This document shows positions 287-63,439 of a DNA stretch of 64,000 nt, one piece after another; within the stretch, counting starts at the first letter, position 1; the number at the start of each line of letters is the position of its first letter. A model generated the notes under the pieces. The model was not told the origin of the DNA. It saw only the letters and a program-made list of their open reading frames with translations, and did no database searches. Position numbers and translations under genes: made by a program. This stretch comes from an uncultured Bifidobacteriaceae bacterium (GTDB lineage: Bacteria > Verrucomicrobiota > Verrucomicrobiia > Limisphaerales > UBA11358), in NCBI GenBank assembly GCA_964655855.1, contig CAZZPE010000002.1, forward strand, positions 89,076 to 153,075. The letters are read 5' to 3'.

Positions 287-1308
287 TTTGTCGCCGCGTT
301 GGCGTCGGCGCGCTGCTGGAGCTGGCGTTCGAGATAGGTGTCCTCCGGCGCTTCGAGCCAGGCGGTCAGCCAGATGTTGCCGAGCATCTGCCCGGCCTTG
401 ACGAGCTGTCCGTCAAGAAACGGCAGGCCATCCATGCCCTTGCCGGGCTCGCCGGTGAGCTGGCCGTTTTTTTCCAATTCATAAAGCGGCTCGACCAGTT
501 TGTTTTGCTCGACAAGATAATTCACCGCCGCCCGAAAAACCCCGTCCGGCTGATCCGCGTTGGCGATGCGCGCGGCAGGCTGTATTTTTCCGACGAGCGT
601 TTCCACCTTTATCCCGCCGGTTTTTTTGAAATAGCCGCCATCAATCCACGGGTGAAACGTCGTCCGGGTCGTGTAGCCCTTCGGATTGTCGCCAATCCAC
701 CCGTTGAAATGCACCGTCGTGTGGAGTGGCTGGGAACCGTCGCCGACGTAGTGCCCCATCACGCCCATCACATAAATGCAGTCCGCCTGCGCGTTGGCAA
801 TTTCCTCCGGCGTGCCGCCATATTGCCGGAACGCCTTCAGCGAACTGAAATCGGATTTCAACTTCTCGTAGTTCTCCGTGATGGCCCACGGCAAAAATCC
901 GTCCAGCTCGCGCGTGTGGTCGGCGTCCTTGTCCGGATCAATCGGCGGAAACTTTTCGGGATGCGCCGCGCGCGCCCTCGCGATGTCCGCCGCGAAATCG
1001 TAGCGCATCATCGGCAGCGTCTCCGGCGTCAGGTCGTAAAGCTTCAAATCCTCCAAATCAATGTAATGATCCGGGGGATTGAAATTTTTCAACGGCAGAT
1101 CGCCCACGTTCCGCCAGCGGTCCGGCTCGCCCGCCAGAAATTCGATGCGCCCTTTCAACGCGGGCGTCATCTCAAATCCGCCAAAATCCTTCGGCAACGA
1201 CGCCAGCGCCAGCTCGTTGATGGCGTGATGCCCTTCGTAATCCCACGCGCCAGCGCCGAAGGTAAACACGCCAAATGCAGCCGCAACGACAAACAATTTG
1301 CTTTTCAT
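283..1308 (-). CDS. Secreted phospholipase C / S1-P1 nuclease superfamily protein
   Basis: N-terminal signal peptide (MKSKLFVVAAAFGVFTFGAGA), then WDYEGHH, resembling the mature-N-terminal Trp/His zinc ligands of this superfamily. Confidence 0.5.
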   Translation of the reverse strand: MKSKLFVVAAAFGVFTFGAGAWDYEGHHAINELALASLPKDFGGFEMTPALKGRIEFLAGEPDRWRNVGDLPLKNFNPPDHYIDLEDLKLYDLTPETLPMMRYDFAADIARARAAHPEKFPPIDPDKDADHTRELDGFLPWAITENYEKLKSDFSSLKAFRQYGGTPEEIANAQADCIYVMGVMGHYVGDGSQPLHTTVHFNGWIGDNPKGYTTRTTFHPWIDGGYFKKTGGIKVETLVGKIQPAARIANADQPDGVFRAAVNYLVEQNKLVEPLYELEKNGQLTGEPGKGMDGLPFLDGQLVKAGQMLGNIWLTAWLEAPEDTYLERQLQQRADANAATK

Positions 1309-2237: not shown

Positions 2238-2786
2238 GTGAATTCGCCAGCCATTCTCATTCCCACCGAACGCATTGAACGCAGCATCCTTTTGATTCGC
2301 GGCGAGAAAGTCATGCTCGACGCCGACTTGGCGGAGATTTATGGCGTTGAAACCAAAGTTTTGAATCAAGCCGTCAAACGGAATGCCACCCGTTTCCCGG
2401 AAGATTTCATGTTTCAATTGACGGAAAGGGAGAAAATGGAGGTGGTCACAAATTGTGACCACCTCGTCCGAATCAAGTTTTCGCCGCATCTCCCCTTCGC
2501 CTTCACCGAACACGGCGCGTTGATGCTGGCAAACGTCCTGAACAGCGAACGCGCTGCGCTGACCAGTGTGCAAGTCGTCCGCGCCTTCGTGCGGCTGCGG
2601 CAGATGCTCGCCTCCAACGCCGAACTTTCCCGCAAGCTCGCCGCCTTGGAGAACAAATACGACGCACAATTCAAGATTGTGTTCGACGCCATCCGCCAGT
2701 TGATGACGCCACCCGAACCTAAACGCCGCGAAATTGGATTTCATGTCAAATATGACGACGACAAACCGAAGGCGAAAAAACCATGA
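2238..2786 (+). CDS. ORF6N domain protein (KilA-N-related DNA-binding domain)
   Basis: IRGEKVMLDADLAEIYGVETKVLNQAVKRNATRFPEDFMFQLT is the hallmark ORF6N N-terminal signature. GTG start; 4-nt overlap with the prmC start. Confidence 0.7.
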   Translation: MNSPAILIPTERIERSILLIRGEKVMLDADLAEIYGVETKVLNQAVKRNATRFPEDFMFQLTEREKMEVVTNCDHLVRIKFSPHLPFAFTEHGALMLANVLNSERAALTSVQVVRAFVRLRQMLASNAELSRKLAALENKYDAQFKIVFDAIRQLMTPPEPKRREIGFHVKYDDDKPKAKKP

Positions 2787-3691
2787 CCGTTCTTGAGGCG
2801 ATACAAAAGAGCGCGGATTTCCTTGGCAAAAAAGGCGCCGAGCCGCCGCGCCTGCAGGCCGAATTGCTCCTCGCGCACGCGCTCAAGCTGCCGCGGATGA
2901 AGTTGTATTTGAACTTCGATCGCGTGCTGACACCGGCGGAAATGGACGCGCTGCGCGAACTCGTCAAACGCCGCGGCCAGCGCGAGCCGCTCCAGCACAT
3001 CGTCGGCTCAACCTCTTTTTGCGGTTGTGAAATCGCCGTGAACCGCCACGCCCTCGTGCCGCGGCCGGAAACGGAACTGCTCGCCGAACTCGGCTGGCAA
3101 TTTCTTAATTCAATTTGGGAGGGTCGCCGTGTCGGCGACCCAAATTCAGGGACGGCGACACGCCGTCCCTCCCAAACCAGTGTCCCTACCGCCCTAGACT
3201 TCGGCACAGGCACCGGCTGCATCGCCATCGCGCTCGCGACAAAATGTGCAACAGCTCAAATTCTCGCCACGGACATCTCTGCGGAAGCGCTTGCCTTGGC
3301 GAAAGAAAATGCAGCACGAAACCAAGTTGCAGAACAGATTGAATTTCTGCAAAGCGACGGCTTTGCCACGCTGCCGAAAAGTGAACGCTTCGATTTGATC
3401 ATCAGTAATCCGCCTTACATTCCGTCCGCCGAAATTGCCACGCTCCAGCCGGAGGTCCGCGATTTTGATCCGCGCGCCGCGCTCGACGGCGGCGCGGACG
3501 GGCTGGATTTCTACCGGAAGCTTGCGGCGGAGGCGAAGCCGTTCCTCAAGCCGGATGGGAAAATTATGCTGGAATTCGGTGACGGCCAGGCGGAGGCAGT
3601 CAAGGCCGTTTTTGAAAATGAAAAGTGGATTGTCGAGGCGGTGCAGGAGGATTACAGTCAACGCGAAAGAATTTTGATTGCTCGATATTAA
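2783..3691 (+). CDS. prmC: Release factor glutamine N5-methyltransferase
   Basis: HemK architecture: PRPETE, SAM motif LDFGTGTGCIA, catalytic NPPY (ISNPPYIP). Carries an in-frame repeat insertion at 3114-3176. Confidence 0.85.
   Translation: MTVLEAIQKSADFLGKKGAEPPRLQAELLLAHALKLPRMKLYLNFDRVLTPAEMDALRELVKRRGQREPLQHIVGSTSFCGCEIAVNRHALVPRPETELLAELGWQFLNSIWEGRRVGDPNSGTATRRPSQTSVPTALDFGTGTGCIAIALATKCATAQILATDISAEALALAKENAARNQVAEQIEFLQSDGFATLPKSERFDLIISNPPYIPSAEIATLQPEVRDFDPRAALDGGADGLDFYRKLAAEAKPFLKPDGKIMLEFGDGQAEAVKAVFENEKWIVEAVQEDYSQRERILIARY
3114..3176. repeat. 63-bp double-hairpin palindromic element inside prmC (family A)
   Basis: tttgggag-[gggtcgccg tgt cggcgaccc]-aaattc-[agggacggcg aca cgccgtccct]-cccaaa. 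Two perfect stem-loops closed by a tttggg/cccaaa outer stem. Same architecture as 15377-15421 and 63365-63420. Confidence 0.8.
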
Positions 3692-3695
3692 ATTC

Positions 3696-3780
3696 AACGC
3701 AAAGACGCAAAGATGCCAAGACGCAGAGTTTAGAGAATTCCATTTTTCTCCGCGACTTTGCTCCTTTGCTTCTTTGCGTT
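3696..3780. repeat. Long inverted repeat of aacgcaaag/ctttgcgtt type (family D), between prmC and murA
   Basis: Left arm aacgcaaagacgcaaagatgccaagacgcagag pairs with right arm ctccgcgactttgctcctttgcttctttgcgtt. Related copies at 27624-27708, 30463-30492 (half) and 57530-57596. Confidence 0.75.
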
Positions 3781-15359: not shown

Positions 15360-15376
15360 GCTGCGAAAGGTCTGGA

Positions 15377-15421
15377 GCGCGCGGACATGTCCGCGCCCGG
15401 AAAGCGGCGACATGTCGCCGC
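15377..15421. repeat. Two perfect 18-nt palindromes (family A hairpins)
   Basis: gcgcggacatgtccgcgc (15379-15396) and gcggcgacatgtcgccgc (15404-15421), separated by ccggaaa. Confidence 0.85.
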
Positions 15422-15449
15422 AGTCCATGCAAGCACCGGCTTACGCTGC

Positions 15450-32686: not shown

Positions 32687-32694
32687 TTGAAGAT

Positions 32695-32754
32695 GTAGCA
32701 GCGGACGTAAGTCCGCTCTAACTAAAAATTGAGCCGACTTACGTCGGCTGCTAC
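32695..32754. repeat. REPIN-like inverted doublet (family B), between convergent genes
   Basis: gtagcagcggacgtaagtccgctc-taactaaaaatt-gagccgacttacgtcggctgctac. Each arm also contains its own 7-bp hairpin. Confidence 0.8.
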
Positions 32755-32757
32755 AAA

Positions 32758-38949: not shown

Positions 38950-39573
38950 GTAGCGCCGTAGGCGCGACATCTTTGTAGCCCCGGCACAGAAAAAGATTTC
39001 CCAGCTCCGTCAGGAGCGACATATTCGGGGCATGGCCAACACCTACACCCAGATTTACATCCATGTCGTGTTTGCCGTGGAAGGACGGCAAAACCTGATT
39101 TCGCCGGAGCATAACGACGAATTGCAAAAATTCATCACCGGCATCGTGTCCGGCCTGCGGCAGAAATTGATCGCCATCAACAATATGCCGGATCATCTGC
39201 ACCTGCTCGTCGGGCTGCGACCGGATTCGTCCCTCTCTGATTTGGTGCGCGACATCAAGACGGGTTCATCCAAATTCATCAAAGAAAAACGGTGGGTGGC
39301 GGGGAGATTCTCGTGGCAGGAAGGATTCGGGGCGTTTTCGTATTCCCGCTCGCAATTGGGAACCGTCATCCGCTACATTCAAAACCAGCAACGGCATCAC
39401 GCGAAGAAATCATTTCGCGAGGAATATGTTGAATTGTTGGAACGGTTCGGCGTGGTTTACAACGCAAAATTCATTTTCAAAACCGGCGATGAATGATTCC
39501 GGAATATGTCGCCCCTACGGGGCTTGGGATTCTGGGTTGGCGGTTTCTACAAAGATGTCGCTCCTAACGGAGC
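38950..39573 (+). mobile_element. REP-flanked Y1 transposase unit (RAYT-like)
   Basis: Nested inverted REPs flank the gene. Outer pair: 38950-38979 (gtagcgccgtaggcgcgacatctttgtagc) and 39546-39573. Inner pair: 39002-39030 (agctccgtcaggagcgacatattcgggg) and 39497-39524. Confidence 0.75.
39032..39496 (+). CDS. IS200/IS605-family Y1 (HUH) transposase, REP-associated tyrosine transposase type
   Basis: HUH motif (MPDHLHLLV) and C-terminal catalytic Tyr helix (VIRYIQNQQRHH). 154 aa. Confidence 0.85.
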   Translation: MANTYTQIYIHVVFAVEGRQNLISPEHNDELQKFITGIVSGLRQKLIAINNMPDHLHLLVGLRPDSSLSDLVRDIKTGSSKFIKEKRWVAGRFSWQEGFGAFSYSRSQLGTVIRYIQNQQRHHAKKSFREEYVELLERFGVVYNAKFIFKTGDE

Positions 39574-57599: not shown

Positions 57600-58271
57600 T
57601 TGGACGTCGTGCTCATCGCATTCCACAAACCGTTCGGCGTCCTGTCGCAATTCACCGGCGACGGCTCGCCCAACCGCACGCTGGCGGAATTCGGCTTTCC
57701 GAAAAATGTTTATGCCATCGGGCGGCTTGACGCGGATTCGGAGGGCCTGCTGCTCTTGAGCGACGAGCCGGCTTGGAACGAAAGGCTGCTGCATCCGCGC
57801 CACGCGCACGAACGCGAGTATTGGGCGCAGGTCGAAAGAATCCCCACGCGCGAGTTGCTGGACAAATTGCAGCAGGGCGTTTTGGTTCAAGGCCGGAAAA
57901 CGCTGCCGTGCCGCGCGTGGATTCTGGAGCCGCAGCCTGAAATTTCATCGGTAGCAGCCGACGTGAGTCGGCTCCAAAATCCGAATGATCAGAGCGGACT
58001 CACGTCCGCTGCTACAAACATAATAATTCCCCCGCGCAACCCGCCCATCCGTTTCCGCAAGAGCGTGCCGGATTGCTGGATTGGCTTGGAGCTGATTGAG
58101 GGCAAGAACCGTCAGGTCCGGCGGATGACGGCGGCCATCGGCCATCCGACATTGCGGCTCGTGCGTGTCCGCATCGGAAATTTCCGGCTGGGCAATCTGC
58201 CGCCGGGACAGTGGAAGATTCTCGACGAACAGGATCGCAGGCTAATTGACGACGCCGGTCCGCAGCGGTAA
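57600..58271 (+). CDS. rluE: RluE/RsuA-family 23S rRNA pseudouridine synthase
   Basis: FHKPFGVLSQF, GRLDADSEGLLLL, PRNPPIRFRKSVP, GKNRQVRRMTA. TTG start. Carries an in-frame family B repeat. Confidence 0.8.
   Translation: MDVVLIAFHKPFGVLSQFTGDGSPNRTLAEFGFPKNVYAIGRLDADSEGLLLLSDEPAWNERLLHPRHAHEREYWAQVERIPTRELLDKLQQGVLVQGRKTLPCRAWILEPQPEISSVAADVSRLQNPNDQSGLTSAATNIIIPPRNPPIRFRKSVPDCWIGLELIEGKNRQVRRMTAAIGHPTLRLVRVRIGNFRLGNLPPGQWKILDEQDRRLIDDAGPQR
57951..58015. repeat. REPIN-like inverted doublet (family B) inside rluE
   Basis: gtagcagccgacgtgagtcggctc-caaaatccgaatgatcaga-gcggactcacgtccgctgctac; translated as SVAADVSRLQNPNDQSGLTSAATN. Confidence 0.85.
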
Positions 58272-63097: not shown

Positions 63098-63360
63098 GCG
63101 CGGGGGCTATTTTCAACTCCCCCCTCGCTTTTTGCAAAGTCCCCGGCGCTTTTTGGACAGGCGGCGGGAGAGCTGGCATCGGCGTGGGGGACTTTGGCAA
63201 AGGAAACGGGGGAGCTGGCACCGGCGGGGTCGCCTTTGGCACCGGCGACGGGGGCTTTCGGAAAGGCGCGGTCGCCGACGGCAGGGGCGAGGGGAAAGTT
63301 CGCGCCGGCGCGGGGGCTTTTTCAAAAGGCCGGGTCGCCTGCGCGGACGGCACGGGGGAG
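63098..63360. repeat. Degenerate about 21-bp tandem array, G-rich, about 12 units (array 3)
   Basis: Units such as gggggactttggcaaaggaaac / gggggagctggcaccggc / gggtcgcctttggcaccggcgac / gggggctttcggaaaggcgc / gggggctttttcaaaaggcc. Confidence 0.65.
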
Positions 63361-63370
63361 AATTTGGACT

Positions 63371-63439
63371 GCGGCGACACGTCGCCGCTTTCCCCGACGC
63401 GACATGTCGCGTCGAACCAAAGCGCGGACTTGTCCGCGC
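63371..63439. repeat. Three 18-nt palindromes, two perfect and one with central mismatches (family A hairpins)
   Basis: Perfect: gcggcgacacgtcgccgc (63371-63388) and gacgcgacatgtcgcgtc (63396-63413). gcgcggacttgtccgcgc (63422-63439) has 7-bp arms around a non-complementary cttg centre. tttgg/ccaaa closes the first two. Confidence 0.85.

Follow-up and report, generated by a model that had tools for sequence, protein, structure and literature searches.

The window analysed here is a stretch of 64,000 nucleotides from the draft genome of a peat Verrucomicrobium. Near its left end, on the forward strand, lies prmC (2783-3691), the gene for the release-factor N5-glutamine methyltransferase, with a product of 302 residues. 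The assignment is based on the TIGR03534 model (274.1 bits, cut-off 199.1), on the HemK structures 1nv8, 2b3t and 1t43, which Foldseek returns as the top matches of the modelled protein, and on motifs: GTGTG (G141-G145) and NPPY (N209-Y212) are invariant in the PrmC alignment. Inside this gene, on the same strand at 3114-3176, sits a 63-bp inverted pair of REP-like units, REPIN-like in build and designated T1 here. It reads TTTGGGA GGGTCGCCG-TGT-CGGCGACCC AAATTCA GGGACGGCG-ACA-CGCCGTCCC TCCCAAA and, being exactly 21 codons long and in frame, encodes I111-Q131 (IWEGRRVGDPNSGTATRRPSQ).

In the RNA minimum-energy fold, T1 forms two perfect hairpins, each with a 9-bp stem and a 3-nt loop, inside a 7-bp closing stem. 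The left half of the closing stem, TTTGGGA (3114-3120), pairs with the right half, TCCCAAA (3170-3176); hairpin 1 occupies 3121-3141 and hairpin 2 occupies 3149-3169, all on the forward strand. Between the hairpins is an AT-rich spacer, AAATTCA (3142-3148), which ranges from 7 to about 30 nt in other T1 copies (alignment A1). This fold has an energy of -44 kcal/mol. Dinucleotide shuffles average -24.6 +/- 3.1 (z = -6.25), and none of 200 does as well. The two 28-nt arms on either side of the 7-nt spacer are also 86% complementary to one another. A preliminary description of this DNA had reported two perfect stem-loops spanning exactly 21 codons between the PRPETE segment and the LDFGTGTG motif, and both the sequence and the fold confirm it.

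At the protein level, when phmmer aligns the window PrmC with E. coli HemK (2b3t_A and 1t43), the alignment is interrupted by a gap of some 20 residues, precisely at the T1 insert. Between PRPDTE and LDLG, E. coli has 17 residues; the corresponding segment numbers 39 in the window protein and 20 in congeners with no insert. The loop is therefore longer than that of E. coli PrmC, as the preliminary description had it. An AlphaFold2 model of moderate quality (65-sequence alignment, mean pLDDT 67, pTM 0.66) shows residues 95-114 as a helix, falls below pLDDT 50 at 116-131 and has strand beta-1 at 136-139, followed further on by beta-3 (186-190) and beta-4 (203-208, then NPPY); the N-terminal domain is weakly modelled (pLDDT 31-57 over residues 1-100). 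The T1-encoded loop is thus predicted to be disordered and to lie after the first helix of the methyltransferase domain, ahead of strand beta-1, which agrees with the surface-loop position proposed at the outset. As all relatives examined have an uninterrupted frame, the sequences imply that T1 is translated as part of PrmC.

T1 in the genome and the genus

A short-word BLAST search of the window genome (3.04 Mb in 96 contigs) gave six T1 loci. In addition to the copy in prmC, there are sibling copies at C44:14961-15019, C64:5431-5499, C72:3281-3351 and C4:100913-100979, and a single T1 unit, or half copy, inside a GH20 glycosidase gene at C46:6334-6361. Four of the six loci are intergenic, three of them where two genes converge and the fourth in the spacer that separates an rpsI-like from an argC-like gene. 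Common to all copies is the arrangement T(T)GGGAGGG-[hairpin]-CCC, AT-rich spacer (7-22 nt), GGG-[hairpin]-CCCTCCCA. The unit can be written as T(T)GGGA-GGG(W)CGSCG-TGY-CGSCG(W)CCC, two such units being inverted around the short AT-rich spacer, and the outer end is TGGGAGGG in all copies (alignments A1 and A4), so that GGAG occupies the position of GTAG.

A covariance model, R1, was built from seven T1 copies. In the window it matches 3112-3178 with 92.9 bits (E 5.6e-27). The preliminary description had seen the same hairpin build in two intergenic segments of the window, 15377-15421 and 63365-63420. The architecture is indeed similar, with an outer TGGAG/CTCCA stem around perfect palindromes of the GCGSCGAC-ATGT-GTCGSCGC type, but these segments are not copies of the same element: R1 scores a mere 11-12 bits there (15368-15432 and 63351-63422, E 0.2-0.4), and the two look-alikes belong to a family other than T1. 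GTAG-tagged units are present in the window as well, at 32694-32755 and 57951-58015, and others occur in L091. A further family in the window genome, with the peptide VGQASSLS...TGKMPVP, lies in frame in PheS, dihydrolipoyl-dehydrogenase-like, MutS and SufS-like genes.

Beyond the window genome, R1 detects T1 in 39 of 61 congeneric genomes and gives no match at all in the other 22. Some genomes have dozens of copies, the highest number of strand-matches being at least 79, with scoring limited to 80 candidates. Such patchiness is typical of mobile repeats. Together with the siblings elsewhere in the window genome, it supports the original proposal that a dispersed and presumably mobile palindromic element resides in PrmC. 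The hairpins themselves are conserved through sequence change. In 70 aligned matches, which represent both strands of about 35 loci in an alignment fitted to the model, 91.8% of cells pair, against 40-57% with slid partners. The closing stem (helix 1) is 83% paired over the 70 rows, hairpin 1 (helix 2) 97% and hairpin 2 (helix 3) 93%. Changes on both sides of a pair occur in 17 of 25 stem pairs, among them seven of nine in hairpin 1 and six of nine in hairpin 2, and the observed values were reached by none of 500 shuffles.

PrmC is not the only protein to carry T1. When the best copy outside prmC is taken from each genome (21 copies), about five prove to be in-frame parts of Pfam-verified genes: an OGG glycosylase, at the same site in two genomes (G055 and G058), a class I/II aminotransferase (Aminotran_1_2), an ArgD-like class III aminotransferase (Aminotran_3) and a DUF255 thioredoxin-domain protein. 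These in-gene copies are read in different frames and in both orientations. We considered the property of being open in five of six frames as a hallmark of in-gene survival and dropped it, a random 63-mer of the same GC content being so about 20% of the time by our own estimate. As T1 and another family lie in frame in other genes, the prmC insert is one case of a genome-wide habit. In Verrucomicrobia, inserts of this kind make predicted proteins longer and may lead annotation, alignments and structure models astray.

Two variable loops of PrmC and their cassettes

We examined prmC loci from 30 of the 40 relatives searched and 112 classifiable metagenomic PrmC clusters (71-100% identical). Two sites in the protein are variable: site A, from LAELGWQFL to ALDFGTGTG, and site B, from DGFAAL to FDLIISNPPY. 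The baseline at site A is 20 residues after PRPETE, often with a run of 7-nt units, (TCAACYC)x3-4, that encodes STLNSQPSTA. At site B the baseline is 7 residues. In the window genome this second loop, TLPKSER (3371-3391, forward strand), ahead of beta-4 and NPPY, is empty, and in many relatives it holds T1 or other palindromic families. Despite the varying inserts, the frame is open in all 30 fetched loci.

Site A holds T1 at the identical nucleotide position in the window genome and in G009. In other relatives it is filled by a GTAG...CTAC double hairpin (G002 and G008), by an element of the CGGAGGGGCGAG type (G022 and G004) or by other long palindromes (G017 and G028). At site B, G009 has a second copy of T1 in the same frame, G022 carries a member of the family seen at 15377 in the window, G017, G001 and G003 have a hairpin of the GGTGGGGCGAGCG type, and G023 and G004 have one of the CGGAGGGAC type; the site B inserts fold at -32 to -53 kcal/mol. 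Approximate counts over the 112 clusters give, for site A, T1 in 42, T3 in 22, T4 in 8, T2 in 5, T8 in 3, another insert in 6 and none in 26, and, for site B, T3 in 23, T6 in 13, T1 in 8, T7 in 7, T5 in 3, another insert in 1 and none in 57. At least about eight palindromic families are thus distributed over the two sites in these clusters, all of them in frame.

In a tree built without both loops, the window protein groups with P0002, which has T1, and with P0005, P0006 and P0014 (SH-aLRT 93), which have the short loop STFNSQPSTA; the closest of these, P0005, is 92% identical to the window protein outside the insert. The nearest PrmC relatives and most congeners being without T1, the 21 codons are lineage-specific, which was the first point to be settled by alignment with orthologues. 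The same tree requires a minimum of 34 and 37 changes, figures that we rejected as counts of gain and loss events, given 48 unresolved branches out of 109 and the likelihood of recombination.

Alignment of the DNA of empty alleles with that of the window turns CTCAACTTTCAACTCCCAACCATCAAC into TAATTCAA followed by T1 and CCAGTGTCCCTAC. Neither a target-site duplication nor a clean 63-bp empty site was seen in this alignment; part of the ancestral loop coding sequence has been replaced. The variable linker on the 3' side of T1 (3177-3195, forward strand; CCAGTGTCCCTACCGCC.., TSVPTA) resembles the right end of the GTAG-type element of G002 and also the xDxPTA linker that follows T1 in other lineages. 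The idea that 3177-3189 is a remnant of the G002 element loses force because other T1 alleles have a linker to which this stretch can be aligned too. Judging from these alignments, the history of the allele is one of cassette replacement and not of a single simple insertion, and allelic recombination possibly contributed to it.

Class I methyltransferases bind cofactor and substrate at the C-terminal ends of their strands. Because loops A and B precede beta-1 and beta-4, respectively, the established fold topology would put both at the sheet edge of the Rossmann fold that faces away from the pocket for SAM and GGQ. For this reason PrmC may well accept nearly any in-frame cassette at both loops, selection purging only those insertions that are out of frame or bear a stop codon. 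Cassettes would then be exchanged, replaced or lost with time, leaving the mosaic of families found among close relatives. With two loops, hundreds of alleles and about eight unrelated cassettes or none, PrmC is a natural experiment in the absorption of selfish DNA by an enzyme.

Conservation of T1 and competing readings

The unexpected feature of the in-gene copies of T1, and the one deserving follow-up, is their conservation at the level of the nucleic acid. Eight prmC lineages with available DNA were picked by protein similarity and compared in 28 pairs. Mean identity within T1 is 90.7% overall and 90.9% at third codon positions, against 76.6% and 58.2%, respectively, in the rest of prmC. 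Between the window and G009, 60 of 63 T1 positions are identical, with 56% identity at third positions elsewhere; the chance of at least 60 matches in 63 at p = 0.6 is about 1e-10. The few differences within T1 are mostly amino-acid changing, and in P0030 hairpin 1 differs through paired changes that alter the peptide. On this evidence, conserved third positions, differences that mostly change amino acids and the paired changes of P0030, the constraint on T1 acts on the nucleic acid and not on the peptide. A similar picture comes from the OGG gene, where the copies of the two genomes are identical at 59 of 60 positions, against 63% at third positions, a comparison biased towards intact elements because each copy was chosen as the best-scoring one of its genome; the eight-lineage prmC test is free of this bias. 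Many lineages have homologous linkers after T1, as a single old insertion would leave them, and neutral junk would then hardly be expected to stay 91% identical. Host silent sites offer a built-in neutral yardstick for the conservation of REPs and REPINs, by which selection, conversion and turnover, debated for REPINs, can be approached.

Three processes could account for the conservation: T1 may re-insert repeatedly at one spot, it may be converted ectopically by its sister copies, as was suggested long ago for REPs (Higgins et al. 1988, cited in PMC3116915), or its hairpin may be under selection. Selection on the hairpin leads to the strongest competing reading, namely that the structure is kept because the host uses it, the in-gene position being one of many functional sites. 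It might serve as a DNA site for gyrase, IHF or a similar protein, as has been proposed for the REPs and BIMEs of E. coli, or as an mRNA structure that slows ribosomes at a domain boundary or tunes mRNA stability. The silent-site conservation in eight lineages, the near-identity of the OGG copies, the compensatory changes in the stems and a peptide conserved as well as the enzyme and better than the adjacent linker all speak for such a use. However, the loop that holds T1 is empty in some close relatives and filled by unrelated palindromic families in others, which means that it does not need any particular structure; moreover, R1 gave no T1 match in 22 congeners, and the OGG pair is weighted towards intact copies. 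We regard this reading as unlikely.

Less probable still is a purely protein-level account, in which an ordinary lineage-specific insertion serves PrmC, for instance by contacting a partner or the release factor, and the palindromic DNA of T1 is incidental. Across 41 PrmC variants the T1 core of the peptide is 76-79% identical, much like the remainder of the enzyme (78-82%) and above the adjacent linker (57-59%), as a functional segment might be. But this DNA is also present between genes and, read in other frames, within unrelated genes, silent sites within it are conserved while its few substitutions mostly change amino acids, the loop is predicted to be disordered, and the nearest PrmC relatives do without the insert. 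That the 63 bp arose in assembly, or are excised at the DNA or RNA level ahead of translation, can barely be entertained even for a 96-contig draft, as a 90%-identical PrmC with the insert (62 of 63 nt) is found on at least 24 contigs from independent samples, one of them longer than 1 Mb, G009 and five further metagenomic lineages have T1 at the same site, and the inserts at both loops all keep the frame and avoid stop codons, for which there would be no reason if they were removed.

Taken as a whole, the evidence is very probably best explained by T1 being a dispersed, REPIN-like repeat that lies in frame in prmC, is tolerated there and is maintained at the level of the nucleic acid. Much more tentatively, in-gene copies of this dispersed repeat may be kept intact instead of decaying as junk, over divergences that largely randomise the silent sites of the host gene, either because permissive loops of indispensable genes act as refuges for REPINs, where imprecise deletion of T1 would damage the host gene, or because the hairpin has a function for the host; we consider this a rather doubtful extension. 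If the refuge idea were true, live REPIN copies could persist in genes and reseed or convert the genomic population.

Possible mobilisation and relation to known repeats

The proposed origin of the insert begins with T1 as one copy of a small non-autonomous repeat made of two inverted REP-like units. Elements of this build fold into hairpins in single-stranded DNA, and HUH/Y1 transposases (RAYT, or TnpA-REP) are their proposed movers in trans, without target duplication; T1 would have moved likewise. One copy would have come to rest in frame in the PrmC loop between the first methyltransferase helix and beta-1; it would be transcribed and translated with prmC, adding the 21 residues as a disordered surface loop, and it would since have been held near the family consensus by a force acting on the nucleic acid, whether re-insertion, ectopic gene conversion or selection on the hairpin.

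Genes for the candidate class of trans-acting enzyme are at hand. A PF01797 search found four Y1_Tnp (HUH tyrosine transposase) genes in the window genome, one of them in the window at 39044-39388 on the forward strand and without T1 flanks, and others in five T1-rich congeners. In the six draft genomes, neither the covariance model nor a degenerate single-arm pattern placed T1 arms beside a Y1 gene. The Y1 genes with flanking hairpins carry other REPs: in the window genome one has CCCAGCCATTTATGGCTGGG palindromes on its flanks, and in a congener a classical RAYT of 153 residues lies between GTAGGGACGCGCGGCTCGCGCGTCCC and its inverse, which are GTAG REPs. As no T1-flanked Y1 gene was found in these genomes and T1 has GGAG where RAYT-linked REPs have GTAG, its movement as single-stranded hairpins by a Y1/HUH transposase stays a proposal.

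T1 comes close to the intragenic REPs surveyed by Di Nocera, De Gregorio and Rocco (2013; PMC3733652), who found REPs inside genes of several species, most of them in the verrucomicrobium Opitutus terrae and in Rickettsia conorii. More than half of those intragenic REPs are dimers, which add 20-30 residues to the product; there are genes with two insertions, and orthologues may have different REPs in roughly the same place (PMC3733652). Like the GTAG- and CGTC-tagged intragenic REPs, T1 consists of short GC-rich hairpin units (theirs have 6-9-bp stems) arranged head-to-head and in frame in Verrucomicrobia. Unlike them, it belongs to neither tag class. Members of the GTAG-tagged superfamily have GTAG, or a close variant of it, at the outer end of the unit, where T1 has GGAG; CGTC-tagged units combine the CGTC tag with an 8-9-bp stem and a 4-5-nt loop, whereas T1 has no such tag at either end and a 3-nt loop. 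The comparison of T1 with the silent sites of its host was made here and is absent from that paper, and prmC does not appear in its list of O. terrae intragenic REPs, as far as a search of the supplement showed (PMC3733652).

With the REPINs of Bertels and Rainey (2011; PMC3116915), T1 shares an inverted pair of REP units around a short spacer, able to form a hairpin, and a dispersed, multi-copy and mostly extragenic population that evolves within the genome and is long-lived in the lineage. It differs in that no RAYT flanked by T1 was found in the six draft genomes, REPINs usually having a cognate single-copy RAYT gene flanked by the same REP, and in that REPINs are described as extragenic. 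REPINs fold as one long hairpin (PMC3116915), whereas the favoured fold of T1 is a three-way junction because each arm is itself a perfect palindrome. MITEs such as Correia/NEMIS and Nezha likewise have inverted ends, are short and non-autonomous, and may insert into genes; they have IS-derived terminal inverted repeats and target-site duplications, in contrast to T1, which has REP-type hairpins and no duplication and so falls outside that class.

The analogy with the Rickettsia palindromic elements drawn in the preliminary description is a sound one as far as behaviour goes. Like RPE-1 to RPE-8 (Ogata et al. 2000/2002, in PMC3733652), T1 is palindromic, lies in frame in housekeeping genes, is presumably translated and ends up in a predicted surface loop. 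The likeness is one of behaviour only, since family, phylum and lifestyle are unrelated and RPE-1 is longer (about 100-150 bp). In the verrucomicrobial clade, in distinction to the RPEs, many different families alternate at one PrmC loop. In-frame insertion of the REP or RPE type is therefore known from Rickettsia and Opitutus, and T1 is a further, richly documented member. One of the listed cases lies close by: R. conorii RC1314, a protein of 524 residues, is given with a CGTC-1 unit at residues 109-117 (PMC3733652). Its length matches the PrmC/TrmB fusion model PRK01544, and the unit adjoins the position of the T1 insert, by residue number alone.

Palindromic elements elsewhere in the genome

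Besides the copy in prmC, T1 (the 63-bp inverted pair of REP-like units) occurs elsewhere in the same genome. One copy (contig C64:5431-5499, locus L032) is flanked by the end of an rpsI-like gene and the start of an argC-like gene. A half element, comprising a single T1 unit, lies in frame within a GH20 glycosidase gene (contig C46:6334-6361, corresponding to L035:1501-1528), where it encodes LGRRRAISPK in the C-terminal part of the protein. Insertion within reading frames is also seen with another palindromic family, recognizable by the peptide VGQASSLS...TGKMPVP / RQDACPT and found on contigs C4, C12, C14 and C55 (also C9). Four genes verified by Pfam have copies of this family in frame: PheS, a dihydrolipoyl-dehydrogenase-like gene, MutS and a SufS-like aminotransferase. 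Two further copies reside in a putative 1242-aa methylase-like ORF. A different family from T1 is represented by two doublets in the window (32694-32755 and 57951-58015), which are classical GTAG REP dimers: tagged GTAG...CTAC (TGTAGCAGCGGACGTAAGTCCGCTC ... GAGCCGACTTACGTCGGCTGCTACA) and 92% complementary.

Transposase genes and their flanks

The genome has four Y1_Tnp genes, one of them, of the IS200/RAYT type, in the window (39044-39388, forward strand; 85.7 bits). No repeat hairpins were found within 700 bp of this gene. In the congener G054, a RAYT-type gene of 153 aa (L091:1348-1809, reverse strand) is situated between inverted GTAG REPs at 1317-1345 and 1849-1874 of the same locus. The adjoining gene, which is pseudouridine-synthase-like (657-1307, reverse strand), seems to contain a palindromic insert that keeps the frame, GRAVPCAPS...GAHGVTRPT.

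The surroundings of prmC

The T1 insert is not the only presence/absence difference around prmC; a second is an ORF6N-domain gene of 182 aa (2238-2786, forward strand) between a histone-deacetylase-family gene and prmC. This gene has the same position in the window and on the contig of P0002, the close PrmC relative that bears T1. The contigs of P0014 and P0005, two relatives without the insert, lack it, and there the deacetylase gene extends over the start of prmC. Immediately 3' of the prmC stop codon is an inverted repeat of ACGCAAAG-like units (3696-3780; 33 nt, 82% complementary), which overlaps the start of the next gene, of the EPSP-synthase family, when that gene is taken as its longest ORF. 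The repeat is probably either a terminator or a hairpin element of the heptamer type.

The PrmC loop in relatives and a possible parallel in Rickettsia

Where site A, the loop ahead of strand beta-1 that T1 fills here, is empty of a palindromic insert, it is often coded by three to four tandem 7-nt units (TCAACYC, CTCTCAC and similar). Such heptamer-coded loops were seen at site A of L004, L007, L011, L013, L014, L028 and L029 and at L070:1830-1860, and the resulting STLNSQPSTA-like peptides recur in multiple genera and families within the order. In Rickettsia conorii, RC1314, annotated as a tRNA-G-N7 methyltransferase, is listed as having a palindromic unit of the CGTC-1 family at residues 109-117 (PMC3733652, supplement file 4); the protein's length of 524 aa is that of the PrmC/TrmB fusion. 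Judged by residue number, this unit adjoins the position of the T1 insert, and the two may represent convergent use of the same PrmC loop.

Two other variations were observed among the relatives. Several PrmC orthologues (L024, L005, L027) end in poly-serine tails (SSSSSSSS) that others lack, and these tails may be read-through into simple repeat. Genome G023 has a second prmC-like copy (C4:1336-2186), whose C-terminal half contains four TGA codons in frame; this copy could be a pseudogene or contamination.
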